Virus record (IMG/VR): IMGVR_UViG_3300020041_000070
Span: 1 to 6,147 of that record
Source of the DNA: a virus
Strand: one strand, 5' to 3'
Length of the DNA stretch: 6,147 nucleotides
Shown here: positions 1-6,147 of the stretch, piece by piece
How positions within the stretch are numbered: the first letter of the stretch is position 1
Layout: the number at the start of each line of letters is the position of its first letter
Translations under genes and position numbers: made by a program
The notes under the pieces: generated by a model
Told to the model about the DNA's origin: nothing
The model's database searches: none
Seen by the model: the letters and a program-made list of their open reading frames with translations, nothing else

Positions 1-53
1 ATTTCCAAGTATATGCTGTTCAGAACTTGGATAGAAATGGTTTACCTTATTAA
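1..53 (+). CDS. VP1: 3' end of the major capsid protein VP1 (partial; duplicate of 6027-6079)
   Basis: Reads ...FQVYAVQNLDRNGLPY then stop TAA at 51-53. Identical to the end of the 4346-6079 ORF. Confidence 0.9.
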   Translation, partial: FQVYAVQNLDRNGLPY

Positions 54-121
54 TTTGTGCTGTTATGAGAAATTTTGCCTATAAGAACCCCGATTATATT
101 AAAAATGAGGTTGTTCCCGAG
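1..121. repeat. Terminal redundancy: exact copy of 6027-6147. This is the signature of a circular genome linearised with overlap; unit length 6026 nt.
   Basis: Base-by-base comparison shows the first 121 nt are identical to the last 121 nt. The repeat carries the VP1 3' end, its stop codon and the start of the next gene, so it is not a biological LTR. Confidence 0.97.
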
Positions 122-508
122 TTGGTTGAGGAACATCCGTGCTATCAACAGTCTGTATACGATACTGTTATGTATGATACGTCTTCTGACGGTGATTTGA
201 TTCAAAATGATATGACGCAGATTCTCCTTAATCAGGAAAAATATCGTCGTCTTCTTGGTGACATGAATGTTCAGAATATTCTTTCCCAGATGCATCCTAC
301 TCAGTCTACCGTTATGGACGGTATGACTGATGAGCAGCGCTTTGATTGTGTTATCTCCCGGCATTGTCAGACTATGTCGGAGCGACAGGCTGTTTTACAG
401 CATCTGGCTATTGAAAAGTCTGAGCTTACTAAGTATGCCCAGGAAATGTTGGCAGAGCAGCAGTCAGCGCCCGATAAATCGCCCGCCCCTGACGCCGGTG
501 CTCAATGA
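65..508 (+). CDS. Hypothetical 147-aa protein between VP1 and VP2; possibly an internal scaffolding (VP3-like) protein
   Basis: The ORF shows the same T3 codon bias as the capsid genes. It starts 11 nt after the VP1 stop, and its stop overlaps the VP2 start (ATGA at 505-508). The product is acidic with a Pro/Ala-rich tail (SAPDKSPAPDAGAQ). Size and position resemble gokushovirus VP3, but I recognise no diagnostic motif. Confidence 0.75.
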   Translation: MRNFAYKNPDYIKNEVVPELVEEHPCYQQSVYDTVMYDTSSDGDLIQNDMTQILLNQEKYRRLLGDMNVQNILSQMHPTQSTVMDGMTDEQRFDCVISRHCQTMSERQAVLQHLAIEKSELTKYAQEMLAEQQSAPDKSPAPDAGAQ

Positions 509-1620
509 GATTCTATGAGATTGGAGAAAGCCCCTTAATGGGGCACTCCGAAAAACATATTGCTCCGCTTGTTCTTGGCGGTATTATTGCCGCCGGTGCT
601 TCACTTGCCGGTAATGCCATTGGTGCTTCTTCGCAGAATAAGACCAATCAGACTAGCGTTGATATTAATCGTGAGAATAACGCGTTTAATGCCCATCAAG
701 CACAGATTCAGCGTGATTGGCAGGAAAAGATGTGGGGAATGAACAATTCTTACAATTCCCCCAATGCCATGATTTCTCGTGGCTTGAATCCGTTTGTTCA
801 AGGTTCTGCTGCCATGGCTGGTTCTAGATCCCCTGCTTCTGGTGGTTCATCTGCTTCAGCTTCTTCCGCTCCTAGCTTGCAGGCTTTCCGTCCCGATTTC
901 TCTGATGTCGGTTCTGCTCTTGCTTCTATGGCCCAGGCTCGTGCTGCTATGCTTGATGCTGAACAGAACGCTGCTCTTACGCCATATAAGATTGACCAGA
1001 TTCGTGGTGCTACTGATTACCGTAACATTGGTATTGGTGAGTCCGGTTACTGGAATGCTTCTTCTGGTAGACGTTCTGCTCTGTTGGACCAATCCAAGGA
1101 GTACCAGGAGCTTAAGAATATGGAGTTTGCCGGTCGTCTTACGTCTGCACAGGAATCACAGATTTTGCTTGATTCTCAAGCACAGCAGATATTGAATAAG
1201 TATCTTGATGAGCAGCAGCAGGCTGACCTGTTTATTAAAGGCCAGACTTTGGCTAATTTGTATGCCCAAGGTGCTCTTTCTGAAGCTCAATATAAAAACC
1301 AGATGGCCCAGGCTGTTAAGACTTCCGCTGAAACGAACGGTATTCGCATTAGTAATAAGATTGCTCAGCAGACCGCTGATTCACTGATTTATGCTAACAT
1401 TCAGGCTAATCGTGCCCGTGGTTTGTCTTCTCTATGGGATTCTAAGAATACCAATGTTCTTAAGAACATAGAATACTCTAAGGATAAGGCCTTACGTGAT
1501 TATTATAAATGGTCTTCTAAACAGAAACAGAAGGATGTCAATTCTTATGAGCTGCGTAATGCCATTGATTATGGCACCCGTATATTCCAAGGTGTCGGTA
1601 ATTCTGTTGGCCGTAAGTGA
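505..1620 (+). CDS. VP2: Minor capsid / DNA pilot protein VP2 (phiX174 H-like), 371 aa
   Basis: An N-terminal Gly/Ala-rich hydrophobic segment (IAPLVLGGIIAAGASLAGNAIGAS) is followed by the block NAFNAHQAQIQRDWQEKMWGMNNSYNSPNAMISRGLNPF, which is typical of microvirus pilot proteins. Next come a Ser/Ala-rich linker and a long Gln/Ala-rich, probably coiled-coil, C-terminal half. The start could alternatively be the ATG at 538. Confidence 0.85.
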   Translation: MRFYEIGESPLMGHSEKHIAPLVLGGIIAAGASLAGNAIGASSQNKTNQTSVDINRENNAFNAHQAQIQRDWQEKMWGMNNSYNSPNAMISRGLNPFVQGSAAMAGSRSPASGGSSASASSAPSLQAFRPDFSDVGSALASMAQARAAMLDAEQNAALTPYKIDQIRGATDYRNIGIGESGYWNASSGRRSALLDQSKEYQELKNMEFAGRLTSAQESQILLDSQAQQILNKYLDEQQQADLFIKGQTLANLYAQGALSEAQYKNQMAQAVKTSAETNGIRISNKIAQQTADSLIYANIQANRARGLSSLWDSKNTNVLKNIEYSKDKALRDYYKWSSKQKQKDVNSYELRNAIDYGTRIFQGVGNSVGRK

Positions 1621-1679
1621 ATCTATTCTCTTTCCTCCCCTCGAAGCGGTGGAAAATTTTTTGTACTTCAGGACTAGAA

Positions 1680-1726
1680 GCCCATCGCGGCGTTTGAGCG
1701 ATATACACCCGCCGCCCGCGTAGGGC
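1680..1726 (+). other. Imperfect GC-rich stem-loop (GCCC/GGGC plus CGCGG/CCGCG arms)
   Basis: GCCC (1680-1683) pairs with GGGC (1723-1726) and CGCGG (1686-1690) pairs with CCGCG (1716-1720), separated by a 2x2 internal loop. An alternative pairing is GCGGCG 1687-1692 with CGCCGC 1710-1715. Confidence 0.45.
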
Positions 1727-1739
1727 CTGGTCGAAAAAT

Positions 1740-1784
1740 GGAGCGGAGCGACTTCCTTATAGGAGCGCCCCGCTCCGGTATTTT
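1740..1784 (+). terminator. Long GC-rich hairpin (1740-1776) followed by GGTATTTT; candidate intrinsic terminator of the capsid transcript and/or an ssDNA structural element
   Basis: GGAGCGG (1740-1746) pairs with CCGCTCC (1770-1776), GCG (1748-1750) with CGC (1766-1768), and TCCT (1754-1757) with AGGA (1761-1764), leaving loop TAT. A T4 run sits at 1781-1784, but it is not immediately adjacent to the stem. Confidence 0.35.
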
Positions 1785-1801
1785 AGCACGGAGTGCGCAA
1801 A

Positions 1802-1824
1802 GGCAAGACAGTTTCTGCCTTGCC
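1802..1824 (+). other. Hairpin GGCAAGACAG-TTT-CTGCCTTGCC (10-bp stem with one mismatch)
   Basis: GGCAAG/CTTGCC and CAG/CTG pair, with a single A/C mismatch and a TTT loop. Confidence 0.6.
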
Positions 1825-1863
1825 GTGTCTATACACCTTTGTATACATTCACTTGTCAATTAA

Positions 1864-1889
1864 GCGAAGCCCCTAGTTGTGTGCGAAGC
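1864..1889 (+). repeat. Two copies of GCGAAGC (1864-1870 and 1883-1889), the stable DNA mini-hairpin heptamer
   Basis: Both are exact heptamers with starts 19 nt apart, in non-coding ssDNA-phage sequence. Confidence 0.7.
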
Positions 1890-1890
1890 A

Positions 1891-1913
1891 AATCCGAGTT
1901 ATCCTCTCGGATT
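1891..1913 (+). other. Perfect 8-bp hairpin AATCCGAG-TTATCCT-CTCGGATT
   Basis: The exact reverse complement arms are 1891-1898 and 1906-1913, with a 7-nt loop. No T-run follows (CTCCCCCTC instead). Confidence 0.65.
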
Positions 1914-1990
1914 CTCCCCCTCTTGTCTATAAACGCACAACTCACACTCCATCATAAATGGTCCTCTCCCCACAATTCCTGGAGGCAAAA

Positions 1991-2021
1991 TTTGGAAATA
2001 CGAAAAAAACTCATACCTTTG
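1991..2021 (+). promoter_or_regulatory. Bacteroidetes-type sigma-A promoter: -33 TTTG (1991-1994), 19-nt spacer, -7 TAccTTTG (2014-2021)
   Basis: It matches the two-part Bacteroides consensus TTTG ... TAnnTTTG. It lies about 50 nt upstream of the first gene of the 2072-4329 block, and an AT-rich leader follows. Confidence 0.5.
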
Positions 2022-2071
2022 CACCATGTAGAAGTTACAATTATTATTAATGTTTTAAAATTATTACCGTT

Positions 2072-2269
2072 ATGCAAAGATTTATTATTTCAGTTAAAGA
2101 CAGAAACACTGGTCATGATGTTTTTTCGCCTTATGTTGTTAATTCTCTCGATGGCCTTGGACGCTATTGTGAACGTTTTTGTCCATTGGGTTTTATCGTT
2201 GTTGTGGACTCGATTAAAGAGGAGAATGATTTTGTTGAACTTAAAAATCAAAGTGATAATGAAAAGTAA
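2072..2269 (+). CDS. Hypothetical 65-aa protein (orphan; first gene after the predicted promoter)
   Basis: Strong T3 codon bias (ttt att att ... gtt gtt aat tct ...) matches the confirmed genes. The product is acidic and has no motif I recognise. Confidence 0.7.
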   Translation: MQRFIISVKDRNTGHDVFSPYVVNSLDGLGRYCERFCPLGFIVVVDSIKEENDFVELKNQSDNEK

Positions 2270-2342
2270 TAATATTTGGAAAATTGTGATTGGAGCTGTT
2301 TCGGCAGCTCTTGGTTATATTCTTAATGCTATTGGATTATGA
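2259..2342 (+). CDS. 27-aa single-pass transmembrane micro-protein (MKSNNIWKIVIGAVSAALGYILNAIGL); candidate holin-like or membrane-active lysis partner
   Basis: The ATG at 2259 overlaps the last 11 nt of the upstream ORF, and the stop TGA (2340-2342) overlaps the peptidase ATG (2339) as ATGA. The 2270-2338 segment is closed in the upstream gene's frame. In this frame it shows the genome's T3 bias (agt aat aat att ... gct gtt ... gct ctt ggt tat att ctt aat gct att). Alternative in-frame starts exist at 2226 and 2115/2118. Confidence 0.55.
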   Translation: MKSNNIWKIVIGAVSAALGYILNAIGL

Positions 2343-2647
2343 ATAGTGCCCTTATGGATTTTCTTGAGCATCTGTTGTCTTTTAACTTGCATTTTACGAT
2401 AACAAGTGCTAAGCGCTCTATTGCTGAGAATAAGGCTGCCGGTGGTGTCCCTAATTCTCAGCATCTGTTTGGAGAGGCTATTGATATTAAGCCTTATGGC
2501 TCTACTACTTATAGTCGTTTGCTTGAGCATATCCATAGTTATTCGGATAATACTCATGTATTTGACCAATTGATATTGTATCCTACGTTTATCCATATTT
2601 CGTTTGGTGGCCGTAATCGTCATCAGGTGATTTATAAATGTAAATAA
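2339..2647 (+). CDS. Minimal peptidase M15-like (zinc D-Ala-D-Ala carboxypeptidase/endolysin fold) cell-wall hydrolase, 102 aa
   Basis: The motif ITSAKRSIAENKAAGGVPNSQHLFGEAIDI matches the M15 signature (SxxR...N...GG...SxH-x6-D). H42 is at 2462-2464 and D49 at 2483-2485. A third His lies in FIHISF (H86, 2594-2596), where the family usually has HVD. There is no N-terminal signal peptide. Confidence 0.8.
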   Translation: MNSALMDFLEHLLSFNLHFTITSAKRSIAENKAAGGVPNSQHLFGEAIDIKPYGSTTYSRLLEHIHSYSDNTHVFDQLILYPTFIHISFGGRNRHQVIYKCK

Positions 2648-2649
2648 TT

Positions 2650-4329
2650 ATGAAGTTTTCTCCTGATTTGTTTAAGGCTGTTGACCATTGTCAGCATCGT
2701 TCGTTTATTACGAACAAGTATACCGGTGCACGCATTGCCGTTGATTGTGGACAGTGTGATTACTGTATCCACAAGAAAGCTAAAAAGGCTTCTATGCGTG
2801 TAAAAACCGCTGGAAGTTCTTTTAAGTATTCTTATTTTGTAACTCTTACTTACGACAATGCGCATCTTCCTCTTATGAATTGTAGTGTTCTCCATAGTGA
2901 TTATGAGGATGCCTTAGGCATTTCAGGAGATATTCATTTTGGCAATGAACATCATCAGTATATCCCTGTTTCTGAATATCAATGTGGTGATAACTCCATG
3001 CTGCGTCATATATTCTTCGTTCAGGTACAAGGCACTGTGCCGTTTGACCGTGAAGTTAAGGAATATGTCCCTGTTAAGGATAATTGGTTTCTTAGTATGG
3101 ACGCTATTCGTAGTTTTATCAATAAGACGCAAGCTGTTGACAAAACGGATTATCCCGCTTCTGCACAATACGGTCGTGATAACCTTATTCCCTTCCTGAA
3201 TTATGTTGATGTTCAGAATTATATTAAACGCTTACGTAAACATTTGTCTTTGAAATTAGGTTCTTATGAAACGTTACATTTTTACGCTGTGGGTGAGTAC
3301 GGACCCGTGCATTTCCGCCCGCATTATCATCTCTTACTATTCACAAACTCGGACAAGGTCGCCGAGGTTCTACGATACTGTCACGATAAGAGTTGGAAAC
3401 TCGGTCGTTCAGATTTCCAACGTTCCGCTGGTGGAGCTGGCTCGTACGTTGCGAGTTACGTTAACAGCTTGTGCGCTTCTCCCCTCCTATATCGCTCATG
3501 CCGCGCGTTTAGACCCAGGTCGCGAGCATCTGTTGGATTCTTTGAAAAGGGCTGCGACTTTGTGGAAGATGAAGACCCTTATGCGCAAATTGAGCAAAAA
3601 ATCGATTCTGTCGTTAACGGAAGAGTCTATAACTTCAATGGCGTCAGTGTTCGGTCAACTCCGCCCATGTCGTATATCCGTACCTTATTGCCCCGATTCT
3701 CGTCTGCTCGCAATGACGATGTTGCTGCGATTGCTCGAATTCTTTGCGCTGTGCATCGGACGCCACAGAGAATTGCAAGGTTCGGATTCATTGATTACGG
3801 ACAAGGCTCAGTTTTAGCTCTTGTTCGTACTTATTATCAATATCTTAAGGTTAACTCTATTCTTACCGATGATGACAAGATTATATTACATGCCTCCCGG
3901 TGTCTTACCAGGTTTGTTAACTGTTCTAGTGATGTCGATACTGAATCTTTCATTAATAAACTGTATCGGCTGTTCCTATATGTCTATAAGTTCTTCCGTA
4001 ACTGGCATCTCCCTCTCTTTGGCTCTGATATTAGTGCTTACTCCGGACGTATTATGTTTATCATTAAAACGGGCATAGAGTATGAGAAGAAAGCGGATTA
4101 TGAAAGTTTACGAAATGCATATGACCTTCGTTCCCAATACTCAAACATATCGGATTGTATGTTTGCGTTGCCTCAGAACGGACAGGAGATTGATGTCCTG
4201 CAAGACGTTTCAAGTGAAACGCTTCAACTTCTTGAGCAACTCCGATACCGTAGTTCGACATTCTGTCGTGATATGATTAAGCATAAGCAGCTTAATGATG
4301 CTAACAATATATTCAATCGTATGGTTTAA
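2650..4329 (+). CDS. VP4: Replication initiator protein VP4 (HUH rolling-circle endonuclease, phiX174 A-like), 559 aa
   Basis: There is an N-terminal Cys cluster CGQCDYC (C33 at 2746, C39 at 2764). RCR motif 1 is FVTLTY (2836-2853). Motif 2 is HUH, H-Y-H in PHYHLLLF (3322-3330). Motif 3 is a double tyrosine, SYVASYVNS (Y266 at 3445-3447, Y270 at 3457-3459), closely resembling the phiX174 A-protein YVAKYVNK. Confidence 0.95.
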   Translation: MKFSPDLFKAVDHCQHRSFITNKYTGARIAVDCGQCDYCIHKKAKKASMRVKTAGSSFKYSYFVTLTYDNAHLPLMNCSVLHSDYEDALGISGDIHFGNEHHQYIPVSEYQCGDNSMLRHIFFVQVQGTVPFDREVKEYVPVKDNWFLSMDAIRSFINKTQAVDKTDYPASAQYGRDNLIPFLNYVDVQNYIKRLRKHLSLKLGSYETLHFYAVGEYGPVHFRPHYHLLLFTNSDKVAEVLRYCHDKSWKLGRSDFQRSAGGAGSYVASYVNSLCASPLLYRSCRAFRPRSRASVGFFEKGCDFVEDEDPYAQIEQKIDSVVNGRVYNFNGVSVRSTPPMSYIRTLLPRFSSARNDDVAAIARILCAVHRTPQRIARFGFIDYGQGSVLALVRTYYQYLKVNSILTDDDKIILHASRCLTRFVNCSSDVDTESFINKLYRLFLYVYKFFRNWHLPLFGSDISAYSGRIMFIIKTGIEYEKKADYESLRNAYDLRSQYSNISDCMFALPQNGQEIDVLQDVSSETLQLLEQLRYRSSTFCRDMIKHKQLNDANNIFNRMV

Positions 4330-4345
4330 TTTTAATTAATTAATT

Positions 4346-6079
4346 ATGAGTGATTTTAATCCTTTAGACCGAGCTAAAATTAATACCCATCGCTCGTCTT
4401 TCGACTTAAGTTCGAAAAAACTGTTTACCGCTAAAGTTGGAGAAATTCTTCCTTGTTATTGGCAGATTGCTATTCCTGGTAACAAGTATCGTATTTCTTC
4501 TGACTGGTTTACTCGTACTGTTCCTGTGAATACGGCTGCCTATACCCGTATCAAGGAATACTATGATTTCTATGCTGTGCCGTTGCGTTTGATTTCTCGT
4601 GCGCTTCCTCAGGCTTTTACTCAGATGACGGATTATATGACTAGTGCGTCTAGTTCTACAGAGAATTCATCTGCGCTTACTTCTGTTCCTACTGTTACCC
4701 AGAGCTTGTTTAGTCTGTTTCTTCAGACGGCTAATTCTCAGGACCAGCCTAATACTCGTGACGATGCAGGCCTTCCTGTTGTCTATGGTGCTTGTAAGTT
4801 GTTGGACATGCTTGGTTATGGTTCTATGATTTCATCTACTAATACAGGTAAGGCTGCTATCACTAAGTCATATCTGGGTGTTGATGGCCTCGGTGACTCT
4901 GATAATCCCTTGGTTTATCAGACATCTCAGACTGTCAGTGCTCTTCCGTTCCTTGCTTATCAGAAAATCTATTATGATTTCTTTAGTAACTCTCAATGGG
5001 AAAAGCATCGTGCTTATTCATATAATGTAGATTATTGGTCTGGTGTTGGTAATATTGGATTGGTTAGGTCTATGGTTGAGCTGCGCTATGCGAACTATCC
5101 TAAAGACTATTTTATGGGTATGCTGCCTTCTTCTCAATATGGTTCGGTAGCCGTTTTGCCCGGTATTTATAACCCCTTAGGATCTTCTAATTCTGTTGTT
5201 GCTGTTGCTGATTCTTCTGTGGATTATGTTGTTAATCCTTCTTCTTCTACTTCGGTTGTTGCTTCTGGTTCGTCTTCTTCTCAACGTGCTGTTTCTCTTA
5301 ATTCTGACCTTTCCGCGCTTTCAATTCGTGCCACAGAGTACTTGCAGCGATGGAAAGAGGTAGTACAGTTCTCTAGCAAGGACTATTCAGACCAGATGGC
5401 AGCCCAGTTTGGTGTTAAAGCTCCCGAATCCATGGGTAATCATGCTCATTATATTGGAGGTTGGTCTAGTGTAATCAATATCAATGAAGTGGTTAATACC
5501 AATCTTGATACCGATTCTTCACAGGCTTCTATTGCCGGTAAAGGTGTATCCAGTAACTCCGGCCATACTCTTACTTATGACTGTGGTGCTGAACATCAAG
5601 TTATTATGTGTGTCTATCATGCCGTACCTATGTTGGATTGGAATTTGACAGGCCAGGCTCCCCAATTGACTGTTACTGCTATATCTGACTTTCCGCAGCC
5701 CGCATTTGACCAGCTTGGTATGCAGTCTGTTCCTGCTCTTAATCTTCAGAATAACCCCGGTCGTAATGTTTCCGGTTCTTTAGGTTATAATCTGCGCTAC
5801 TGGCAGTGGAAATCTAACATTGATACCGTTCATGCCGGATTCCGTGCCGGTGCTGCTTATCAGTCATGGGTTGCGCCTCTTGATGGTTGGCAGGTATTGA
5901 CTTCCGCTGGTGCTTGGTCTTATCAGTCCATGAAGGTTCGTCCCCAACAGTTGAACTCTATTTTTGTTCCCCAGGTTGATTCTGACAATTGTTCGGTTGC
6001 ATTTGACCAGTTATTGTGTAATGTTAATTTCCAAGTATATGCTGTTCAGAACTTGGATAGAAATGGTTTACCTTATTAA
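4346..6079 (+). CDS. VP1: Major capsid protein VP1 (phiX174 F-like jelly-roll), 577 aa
   Basis: The N-terminal block RSSFDLSSKKLFTAKVGEILPCYWQIAIPGNKY is typical of the microvirus major capsid (FDLS...G.L.P...PG). Size fits, T3 bias is strong, and the C-terminus ends NLDRNGLPY. Confidence 0.95.
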   Translation: MSDFNPLDRAKINTHRSSFDLSSKKLFTAKVGEILPCYWQIAIPGNKYRISSDWFTRTVPVNTAAYTRIKEYYDFYAVPLRLISRALPQAFTQMTDYMTSASSSTENSSALTSVPTVTQSLFSLFLQTANSQDQPNTRDDAGLPVVYGACKLLDMLGYGSMISSTNTGKAAITKSYLGVDGLGDSDNPLVYQTSQTVSALPFLAYQKIYYDFFSNSQWEKHRAYSYNVDYWSGVGNIGLVRSMVELRYANYPKDYFMGMLPSSQYGSVAVLPGIYNPLGSSNSVVAVADSSVDYVVNPSSSTSVVASGSSSSQRAVSLNSDLSALSIRATEYLQRWKEVVQFSSKDYSDQMAAQFGVKAPESMGNHAHYIGGWSSVININEVVNTNLDTDSSQASIAGKGVSSNSGHTLTYDCGAEHQVIMCVYHAVPMLDWNLTGQAPQLTVTAISDFPQPAFDQLGMQSVPALNLQNNPGRNVSGSLGYNLRYWQWKSNIDTVHAGFRAGAAYQSWVAPLDGWQVLTSAGAWSYQSMKVRPQQLNSIFVPQVDSDNCSVAFDQLLCNVNFQVYAVQNLDRNGLPY

Positions 6080-6090
6080 TTTGTGCTGTT

Positions 6091-6147
6091 ATGAGAAATT
6101 TTGCCTATAAGAACCCCGATTATATTAAAAATGAGGTTGTTCCCGAG
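6091..6147 (+). CDS. 5' end (19 codons) of the 147-aa gene; duplicate of 65-121 caused by the terminal overlap
   Basis: Identical sequence to 65-121 (MRNFAYKNPDYIKNEVVPE). Confidence 0.75.
   Translation, partial: MRNFAYKNPDYIKNEVVPE

Follow-up and report, generated by a model that had tools for sequence, protein, structure and literature searches.

Very short membrane peptides are known from type I toxins: TisB, DinQ, ShoB and Hol-Tox are single-helix inner-membrane peptides of 19-50 residues that act by depolarisation or pore formation. In microviruses of the Alpavirinae and Gokushovirinae, a peptidase has been described for which a role in lysis as an endolysin was proposed, with an adjacent 'unknown' open reading frame (ORF) in 5 of 11 cases (Roux et al. 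2012, PMC3394797). Such peptidases were given as accessory lysis genes in a study that excluded overprinted genes from its analysis (Kirchberger et al. 2022), and a membrane partner of the peptidase is found in neither paper. For lysis by microviruses outside the phiX174 group, an E-type gene is absent and only the horizontally acquired peptidase had been noted before. Here we analyze a 6,147-nt stretch of viral DNA (IMG/VR record IMGVR_UViG_3300020041_000070, positions 1 to 6,147; hereafter the window), which is one circular gut microvirus genome of ~6026 nt with a 121-nt terminal repeat, and in which a 27-codon ORF (the micro-ORF, 2259-2342) overlaps the start of an M15 peptidase gene (2339-2647). 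With very high confidence, this 27-codon frame is a real protein-coding gene, and the reading that we favour, at about even odds, is that its product forms the membrane part of a two-gene lysis cassette together with the M15 peptidase. The microvirus peptidase is already known as a possible endolysin, and its peptide partner appears to be undescribed; a literature search for a microvirus holin, a transmembrane partner or a function of the 'smalltalk'/DUF6486 micro-proteins returned nothing relevant.

The micro-ORF runs on the + strand from ATG 2259-2261 to TGA 2340-2342 and encodes the peptide MKSNNIWKIVIGAVSAALGYILNAIGL, as read directly from the sequence. Its start lies 11 nt inside a 65-amino-acid (aa) ORF (2072-2269), and its stop codon overlaps the peptidase ATG (2339-2341) in the junction TTATGA. 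The frame is open back to position 1839, with an upstream in-frame ATG that is not conserved among relatives; the conserved start is ATG 2259, which is GTG in two relatives. An earlier note on this DNA had described the frame from ATG 2259 with its ATGA overlap and had stated that it shows the genome's bias for T at third codon positions in its own frame, and both statements prove correct. T occupies 17 of the 27 third positions of the micro-ORF (63%, compared with 45-60% in the known genes), and 16 or more T are found in 0 of 3092 off-frame 27-codon segments of the large genes and in 30% of in-frame segments. Because this in-frame bias is never reached off frame, the micro-ORF is not an off-frame hydrophobic artefact of a genome rich in T at third positions. 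The gene is also predicted by gene callers, as a search with a 40-residue extended query yields 156 clusters, all on ~6-kb contigs and all labelled hypothetical or with spurious names. In the GenBank records of close relatives the micro-ORF is unannotated, and three records fuse its off-frame reading into the peptidase, namely PP511489 (L007, 3936-4310), PP511322 (L010, 3998-4372) and PP511323 (L012, 3985-4359), where a 124-aa peptidase or hypothetical protein is annotated. The first 21 residues of these 124-aa annotations are the micro-ORF read off frame, the conserved start of the peptidase lies further in, at MNV..., and the micro-ORF itself is intact. Routine annotation has missed this gene or merged it off frame into the peptidase.

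The conservation of the micro-ORF was evaluated in two samples, 39 relatives gathered via the whole genome or the peptidase, hence not selected on the peptide, and 77 relatives anchored on VP4 alone, which are likewise unselected on the peptide sequence. The frame is intact in 39/39 and 76/77 relatives of the two samples, and no stop codon or frameshift interrupts it in any peptidase-bearing relative (0/39 and 0/66), so that all 105 of these carry it intact (39/39 and 66/66). Among the 39 relatives, every codon except that of Trp varies at its third position (20 of 21), only 2 of 21 vary at the second, and Ser15 is encoded by TCG, TCT, TCC, TCA or AGC. The ratio of nonsynonymous to synonymous change (dN/dS) over 126 distinct sequences is 0.08 in the micro-ORF frame versus 1.2 and 9.2 in the other two frames. 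In one shared set of 82 genomes, dN/dS is 0.06 for the micro-ORF and 0.21 for the peptidase; the proportions of nonsynonymous and synonymous differences (pN and pS) are 0.040 and 0.44 for the peptide and 0.152 and 0.50 for the peptidase, and the zinc-site segment of the peptidase has a pN of 0.096, with a similar pS, compared with 0.040 for the peptide. As pN is low and pS is high, the constraint is on amino acids, not on nucleotides. Two of the checks that the earlier note had proposed for this gene, conservation beside the peptidase and dN/dS in its frame, thus both come out in its favour, with strong purifying selection (0.06-0.08) in frame and values above 1 in both other frames, and the pattern that the note had named as a refutation, an interrupted frame in relatives that retain the peptidase, is not seen. 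The median identity to the window is 93-96% for the peptide, 77-84% for VP4, ~80% for VP1, ~69% for the peptidase and 51% for VP2, and the 27-aa peptide is the most conserved protein of the genome.

The sole charged residues of the peptide are K2 and K8. Positions 3-5 vary among polar residues, W7 is invariant, position 8 is K or R, and I9-L27 form a 19-residue hydrophobic and small-residue stretch that reaches the C-terminus (...NAIGL*) with nothing after it. The short, polar, Lys-bearing N-terminal part M1-K8 (2259-2282) is predicted to be cytoplasmic, and the residue pattern and helical angles predict a single transmembrane helix for I9-L27 (2283-2339), in agreement with the description of the peptide in the earlier note as essentially one transmembrane helix. 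Because the charges are confined to K2 and K8 and the helix extends to the C-terminus, the positive-inside rule points to a likely N-in, tail-anchored topology, and no part of the peptide is likely to protrude on the outer side. Residues K8, G12, S15, A16, G19, N23 and G26 occupy the sector of 180-280 degrees on a helical wheel. This small/polar face is invariant but for K8R in 3/125 and N23S in 8/125 sequences, and drift is confined to the opposite face (V/I at 10, 14 and 21; A/S/T at 24); the invariance of the small/polar face is also seen in the VP4-anchored sample. In sequence terms, an invariant face with a drifting opposite face is the signature of a specific helix-helix interface, which may be formed with the peptide itself or with a target.

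The partner gene encodes a 102-aa protein that matches Pfam PF08291, Peptidase_M15_3 (5.6e-10, 39.8 bits vs a cut-off of 23.2), and PHROG 894 'endolysin' (6.6e-16). In the alignment with the Streptomyces DD-peptidase 1LBU, its SxHxxGxAxD motif (SQHLFGEAID) coincides with the zinc site, and H42, D49 and H86 are invariant. The AlphaFold model of the peptidase (predicted local distance difference test, pLDDT, 83) most resembles 1LBU, the LysB4 endolysin, VanY and LdcB, with 1LBU as the best fold match (probability 1.00, TM score 0.57). As modelled, the 102-aa protein is a LAS-type zinc peptidase of the M15_3 family. Its N-terminus is a structured helix with acidic residues, without a signal peptide or transmembrane segment, so the peptidase is signal-less, as had been claimed. 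The relatives of the peptidase fall into 1735 clusters at 90% identity, and only microviral ones are found among the 120 best matches. The microviral peptidase covers only positions 29-107 of the 108-position M15_3 profile; its relatives in double-stranded DNA (dsDNA) phages, of 125-170 aa, have an extra N-terminal segment (…NFTLEEL…) that is absent from the 102-aa form, and the shortened peptidase is nevertheless under purifying selection (dN/dS 0.21). In every peptidase-bearing relative the junction with the micro-ORF is ATGA, or GTGA in two genomes, and this overlap (2339-2342, + strand) indicates that the micro-ORF and the peptidase are translationally coupled.

At least six other microvirus lineages encode a similar tail-anchored peptide of 27-30 residues right beside an M15 peptidase, on its upstream or its downstream side, with differing gene orders and often with an overlap of stop and start codons. 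In the Dulem 257 clade (VP1 37% identical), the 29-aa peptide MKSETKSKIWSAIIAAAVSLLTSIAQIFS is encoded 3 nt upstream of the peptidase and is kept in 7 genomes; the micro-ORF of this clade likewise begins inside a '...DEK*' gene end, and the overlap of this gene end with a 'ATGAAAAGT' start is alike in the window and the Dulem 257 clade. In MG945328 and MT135448, MTKEQLNKISNALCALISAVCAALSYFFS overlaps the 3' end of a 131-aa peptidase, as does MLTKEKLTRISNGICALISAICAAISYFL[SN] in MG945336, MG945875 and MT135365, and the codon differences within each subtype of these 29-30-aa ORFs are 5-7 synonymous and 0-1 nonsynonymous. A ~700-nt stretch with the peptidase is reported to have been recombined between the families of MG945328 and MG945336 (Kirchberger et al. 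2022), and the micro-ORF adjoins the peptidase in both genomes. Further similar ORFs are found in MT135399 and Dulem 261. Dipodfec 535 and bajarodmic 145 have another gene order, VP4 followed by the peptidase and then the micro-ORF, which begins 4 nt before the annotated peptidase end, and ten more GenBank microvirus records match the Dipodfec/bajarodmic-type peptide, six of them under an annotated peptidase end.

Whether these peptides share ancestry can be judged from their pairwise z scores against shuffles, which are 2.6-5.6 for the window peptide and 8-20 among the other groups, and from an hhalign comparison of the window-clade profile with the related peptides (probability 86%, E 5.6e-6, 23 columns), a type of score that short low-complexity helices can inflate. 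The similarity beyond composition suggests homology of these short helices and is no proof of it. Such a peptide occurs in 7/10 peptidase-bearing versus 0/6 peptidase-less outgroup lineages (Fisher p = 0.01, from a small, non-independent sample), and the profile of the related peptides finds no match in the six peptidase-less outgroup microviruses. None of the 2029 short ORFs at 83 M15-peptidase loci of dsDNA phages matches the peptide profile (best E 0.31). Searches of IMG/VR for relatives of the MG945328 and bajarodmic 145 peptidases yielded none or only distant dsDNA phages, a protein search with a concatenated query of two relatives yielded nothing, and a degenerate micro-ORF pattern run over representative bacterial genomes gave chance matches only and no prophage. 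The small M15 contigs from the Dulem 257 search were set aside as dsDNA-phage fragments with ordinary holins of two or three transmembrane domains, and a 31-aa ORF before VP4 in Dulem 216 was not counted, as it has a z of 4.4 yet is unrecognised by the related-peptide profile. Two further hydrophobic sequences came to light. Microvirus mar43 has a 35-aa hydrophobic ORF with a basic C-terminus, MEYFWTFLSLIIAVSILVGLAIFIYKCCKAIGGSK, between VP4 and an M15 peptidase (L282, 1224-1331), which is unrelated in sequence to the window peptide, and Dehalococcoidia membrane proteins of ~430 aa (L159-L181) have a C-terminal helix with the identical string IGAVSAALGY, which looks like convergence of small-residue helices, not homology.

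Some of the related peptides lead to described protein families. The micro-ORF of bajarodmic 145 passes the cut-offs of NF033879 (29.8 vs 24.7 bits) and DUF6486 (27.3 vs 22.7), that of Dipodfec 535 reaches 22.9 for DUF6486 against the cut-off of 22.7 and also matches PHROG 4712 'holin' (E 0.003), and those of Dulem 261 and MT135399 show NF033879/DUF6486 matches below cut-off. The window peptide has no match to NF033879 or DUF6486, and 29 clade variants compared with NCBIfam have no NF033879 match even at E 10. From these sequence comparisons, the window peptide would be at best a divergent relative of the uncharacterised NF033879 'smalltalk'/DUF6486 (PF20096) family, of which Bacteroides thetaiotaomicron has an annotated member, a 'smalltalk protein' (PMC10434189).

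In the two-gene lysis cassette that we propose, the product of the micro-ORF would be a 27-residue tail-anchored micro-protein, with its Lys-bearing N-terminus in the cytoplasm and its helix spanning the inner membrane. One transcript, probably driven by a Bacteroides-type promoter, would extend from the 65-aa ORF through the micro-ORF and the peptidase to VP4, and the peptide would be translated just ahead of the peptidase via the ATGA overlap, so that both products would be made in a fixed ratio. Copies of the peptide would accumulate in the cytoplasmic membrane, associate via the invariant small/polar face (G12, S15, A16, G19, N23 and G26) and disrupt the membrane by permeabilisation or depolarisation; the 102-aa zinc peptidase, which has no signal sequence of its own, could then reach and cut the peptidoglycan cross-links. 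Since a cytoplasmic peptidase needs a route across the inner membrane, the peptide is a concrete candidate for that route. It shares with holins that it is a small phage protein with a predicted transmembrane domain and that its gene adjoins an endolysin-like gene. The earlier note had suggested such a two-component lysis module, and the coding capacity, the coupling, the recurrence beside M15 peptidases, the fold and zinc ligands of the signal-less peptidase, the PHROG 4712 'holin' match of the Dipodfec 535 peptide and the position of the only decayed micro-ORF (L355) in a genome that has lost the peptidase as well speak for it; what does not stand is the dependence of the peptide on the peptidase, as 10 of the 11 peptidase-less relatives keep the peptide. 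The sequence data show a coding, constrained and coupled gene, its recurrence in other lineages and the peptidase fold; topology, self-association, permeabilisation and the part in lysis are inferred.

Several points weigh against this cassette. No peptidase is present anywhere in the genomes of 11 of the 77 VP4-anchored relatives, 10 of which have the peptide intact, and a canonical holin without an endolysin kills the cell but releases no phage. Pfam, PHROGs and NCBIfam (E up to 10) yield no direct holin-family match for the window peptide, and it has neither a hydrophilic charged C-terminal domain nor a conserved dual start, both usual in holins. Its near-invariance is unusual for the diverse holins, and binding to a specific target would fit at least as well. 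The passage of a folded enzyme of 11.6 kDa past 27-residue peptides is unexplained, and no outer-membrane (spanin-like) function was identified. The glycines at positions 12, 19 and 26, which the earlier note had singled out as an exact heptad typical of self-associating pore-forming helices, do keep this spacing in the window clade, but the exact heptad is clade-specific: in an ungapped comparison by eye, these positions are Ala, Thr and Ser in the Dulem 257 peptide, with Gln for N23 (automatic alignments pair the columns otherwise), and other subfamilies have Ser, Cys or Ala. Finally, one peptidase-less relative (L355, IMGVR_UViG_3300045988_000119, ~1165-1245) has a decayed micro-ORF with ATG changed to GTG, the substitutions G12D, A17V and G19D, and a frameshifting insertion; this genome seems to be without both genes, and the cassette may be accessory to another lysis route.

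The peptidase-less relatives are central to the strongest alternative, in which the peptide would lyse or kill on its own, either by binding a host membrane protein via its invariant face or by depolarisation that activates autolysins, and the peptidase would be a horizontally acquired, optional booster. We consider this alternative unlikely but a serious contender. Its models are phiX174 E acting on MraY, phage M Lys acting on MurJ, and the toxins TisB, DinQ and TxpA, and the size and architecture of the peptide match those of known single-transmembrane lysis proteins and type I toxins. At least four peptidase-less relatives are complete circles. By VP4 similarity, the peptidase-less genomes lie scattered among peptidase-bearing ones, and both VP2 types occur in them, which indicates a living, recombining lineage. 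Nine peptidase-less relatives found by the peptide pattern have a pS of 0.45 and a dN/dS of 0.07; these copies were ascertained via the peptide, and the VP4 sample confirms the picture. In such genomes the peptide ends in ...LSAIGV*, and a T-rich spacer of 55 nt separates its gene from VP4. Because the peptide is kept under equal constraint without the peptidase, it has a value of its own, unlike a classical holin. One near-invariant helix face beside a drifting one suggests a specific partner, the peptide is more constrained than the peptidase, and microviruses outside the Bullavirinae are not known to have a lysis gene like phiX174 E (Kirchberger and Ochman 2020). It is hard to explain in this way, however, that peptides of this kind and M15 peptidases are repeatedly coupled, across several gene orders, and that the six peptidase-less outgroups have no such peptide; library scans reveal no similarity to a known single-gene lysis protein or toxin family, and L355 has lost the peptide. 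Since the peptide is kept without the peptidase, the two-gene cassette must also allow it an activity of its own, which could be killing or lysis by membrane damage or through host autolysins.

A further alternative is a membrane micro-protein that has no part in lysis, for instance one for superinfection exclusion, a burst modulator resembling phiX174 K or a replication or assembly anchor, whose position would only reflect an accessory slot. For a small membrane protein without a clear role, phiX174 K sets a precedent. Most lineages carry the peptide in the VP2-to-VP4 region, the home of all accessory genes, sister clades hold other small membrane proteins or lipoproteins just before VP4, and the peptide persists without the peptidase. 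However, the peptide of Dipodfec 535 and bajarodmic 145 still overlaps the peptidase end despite the other gene order, the stop/start overlaps with the peptidase are maintained, and such a peptide was not detected in the six peptidase-less outgroup genomes, so that a non-lysis role seems improbable to us.

The peptide could also be a detached signal-anchor of the peptidase, fused to it by frameshifting or readthrough into an endolysin of the signal-anchor-release (SAR) type, and SAR domains are rich in Gly, Ala and Ser, like the peptide helix. In the Dulem 257 clade (L182, 4246-4341; L188-L193) the two ORFs are in frame with only TAA/TAG and GTC between them, where stop-codon readthrough would yield a membrane-anchored peptidase, and the three GenBank records mentioned above annotate a longer 'peptidase' across the region. 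In the window clade, however, helix and enzyme are on separate frames, with the peptidase in the -1 frame, no slippery heptamer at GGATTATGA and a stop at 2324 in the peptidase frame; moreover, the peptide lies downstream of the peptidase in other lineages and exists without any peptidase, and the long GenBank annotations are the micro-ORF read off frame with the true frame intact. We therefore find this fusion very improbable. Finally, a chance open frame or a leader upstream ORF whose peptide is irrelevant, for which its very short length, its position directly upstream of and coupled to another gene, and the hydrophobic off-frame ORFs that T-rich third positions yield elsewhere in the genome might be cited, is rejected as hardly credible, because the substitution pattern contradicts it (amino-acid purifying selection with saturated synonymous change, and Ser coded by both TCN and AGC across relatives), and because the third-position T bias is unreached off frame and one helix face is invariant.

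The genome around the two genes is arranged with every gene on the + strand. A 147-aa ORF (65-508) and the VP2 pilot protein (505-1620) are followed by a 450-nt non-coding stretch (1621-2071), the 65-aa ORF (2072-2269), the micro-ORF and the peptidase, and then by the VP4 replication initiator (2650-4329) and the VP1 capsid protein (4346-6079). The 65-aa ORF, whose last 11 nt overlap the micro-ORF start, has no Pfam or PHROG match, and it is 52-85% identical in all relatives, the peptidase-less ones included. About 50 nt upstream of it, on the + strand, lies a promoter-like motif, TTTG-N19-TAnnTTTG (1991-2021), which we take to be the Bacteroides promoter consensus. This is the sole match in the window on both strands, with 0.19 expected by chance, and the motif is found at an equal distance in 86/133 distinct relatives with a variable spacer sequence; it likely marks where a transcript starts that carries the 65-aa ORF and the micro-ORF as well as the peptidase and VP4. 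The gene starts in the window, read directly, are AT-rich and without a Shine-Dalgarno sequence. Gut microviruses of such a type have been assigned to Bacteroides and Prevotella (Roux et al. 2012, PMC3394797; Kirchberger et al. 2022), and the AT-rich starts without Shine-Dalgarno sequences, the TTTG-N19-TAnnTTTG motif and the literature together point to a probable host among the Bacteroidota. The GenBank relatives of the window, obtained from samples of dog, lemur and human origin, are classified no deeper than Microviridae.

Several side observations concern this genome and its relatives. The non-coding stretch 1621-2071 has a higher G+C content than the sequence around it (0.54 at 1601-1800), can be aligned by megablast even where the genes of relatives cannot, and contains a GC-rich hairpin (1740-1750 with 1766-1776) besides the promoter-like motif; it could serve as an origin, in complementary-strand priming or in regulation. 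The stretch has no Rfam match, and an Rfam scan of the whole window returned nothing relevant. VP2 occurs as two very different allelic types, ~88% and ~50% identical to that of the window, and their mixed occurrence among genomes with 80-90% identity elsewhere points to modular recombination within the clade. In sister clades, the slot before VP4 is occupied by an ORF of ~63 aa (L184, 4658-4849; L270, upstream of VP4) with a signal-like helix ending in Cys (…AAVLTAQSC…, …AVWLCVSC…), which probably encodes a small lipoprotein, and this suggests that the slot before VP4 collects envelope-directed genes. An 11.8-kb metagenomic contig (L158, 1-11851) contains two different related microvirus genomes head to tail, each with a peptidase; we rejected it as a prophage, since two joined microvirus genomes represent an assembly chimera or a concatemer.

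The significance of the two-gene cassette could extend beyond the window. We tentatively entertain, while thinking it somewhat unlikely, that these 27-30-residue tail-anchored peptides are the smallest holin-like proteins known and form, with a minimal 102-aa endolysin, a mobile two-gene cassette exchanged between single-stranded DNA (ssDNA) microvirus families of Bacteroidota, and that the chromosomal 'smalltalk'/DUF6486 proteins are membrane partners of hydrolases too. If this were true, it would account for how a large part of the gut microviruses, all without a gene of the phiX174 E type, achieve lysis. The cassette hypothesis itself, if it holds, would lower the known size limit of holin-like proteins, make sense of a mobile lysis module in ssDNA phages and give the first functional lead for the 'smalltalk'/DUF6486 micro-proteins of Bacteroidota. 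The candidate is the best-conserved product of a very abundant gut microvirus clade.

Compared with known systems, the peptide resembles phage holins such as S21-68 and T7 gp17.5 in being a small membrane protein coupled to a neighbouring signal-less cell-wall hydrolase, and its Gly/Ser/Ala helix face is of the kind that drives pinholin oligomerisation. Unlike holins, it has 27 residues, less than half of the smallest characterised one, with no charged tail or dual start; it is near-invariant, it is kept in genomes without the hydrolase, and the window peptide matches no holin model. Like phiX174 E, phage M Lys and MS2 L, it is a short single-transmembrane peptide with a constrained helix from a very small genome, and, as with single-gene lysis proteins, it persists without a muralytic enzyme in the peptidase-less relatives. 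Unlike these proteins, it is overprinted over 11 nt only, has no soluble domain, is usually paired with a peptidoglycan peptidase and shares no sequence similarity with them; the absence of any muralytic enzyme from the genome, which marks amurin-like proteins, applies to 11/77 relatives, and the window carries the peptidase. It differs from the type I toxins TisB, DinQ, ShoB and Hol-Tox in being phage-encoded and matching none of their families. The NF033879 and DUF6486 (PF20096) families, of ~29-31 residues, have the same layout, a Lys-rich start followed by one small-residue-rich helix. The peptidase belongs to the same family as the M15 'possible endolysin' of the Alpavirinae and Gokushovirinae, which likewise is found among accessory genes and has been proposed for lysis.

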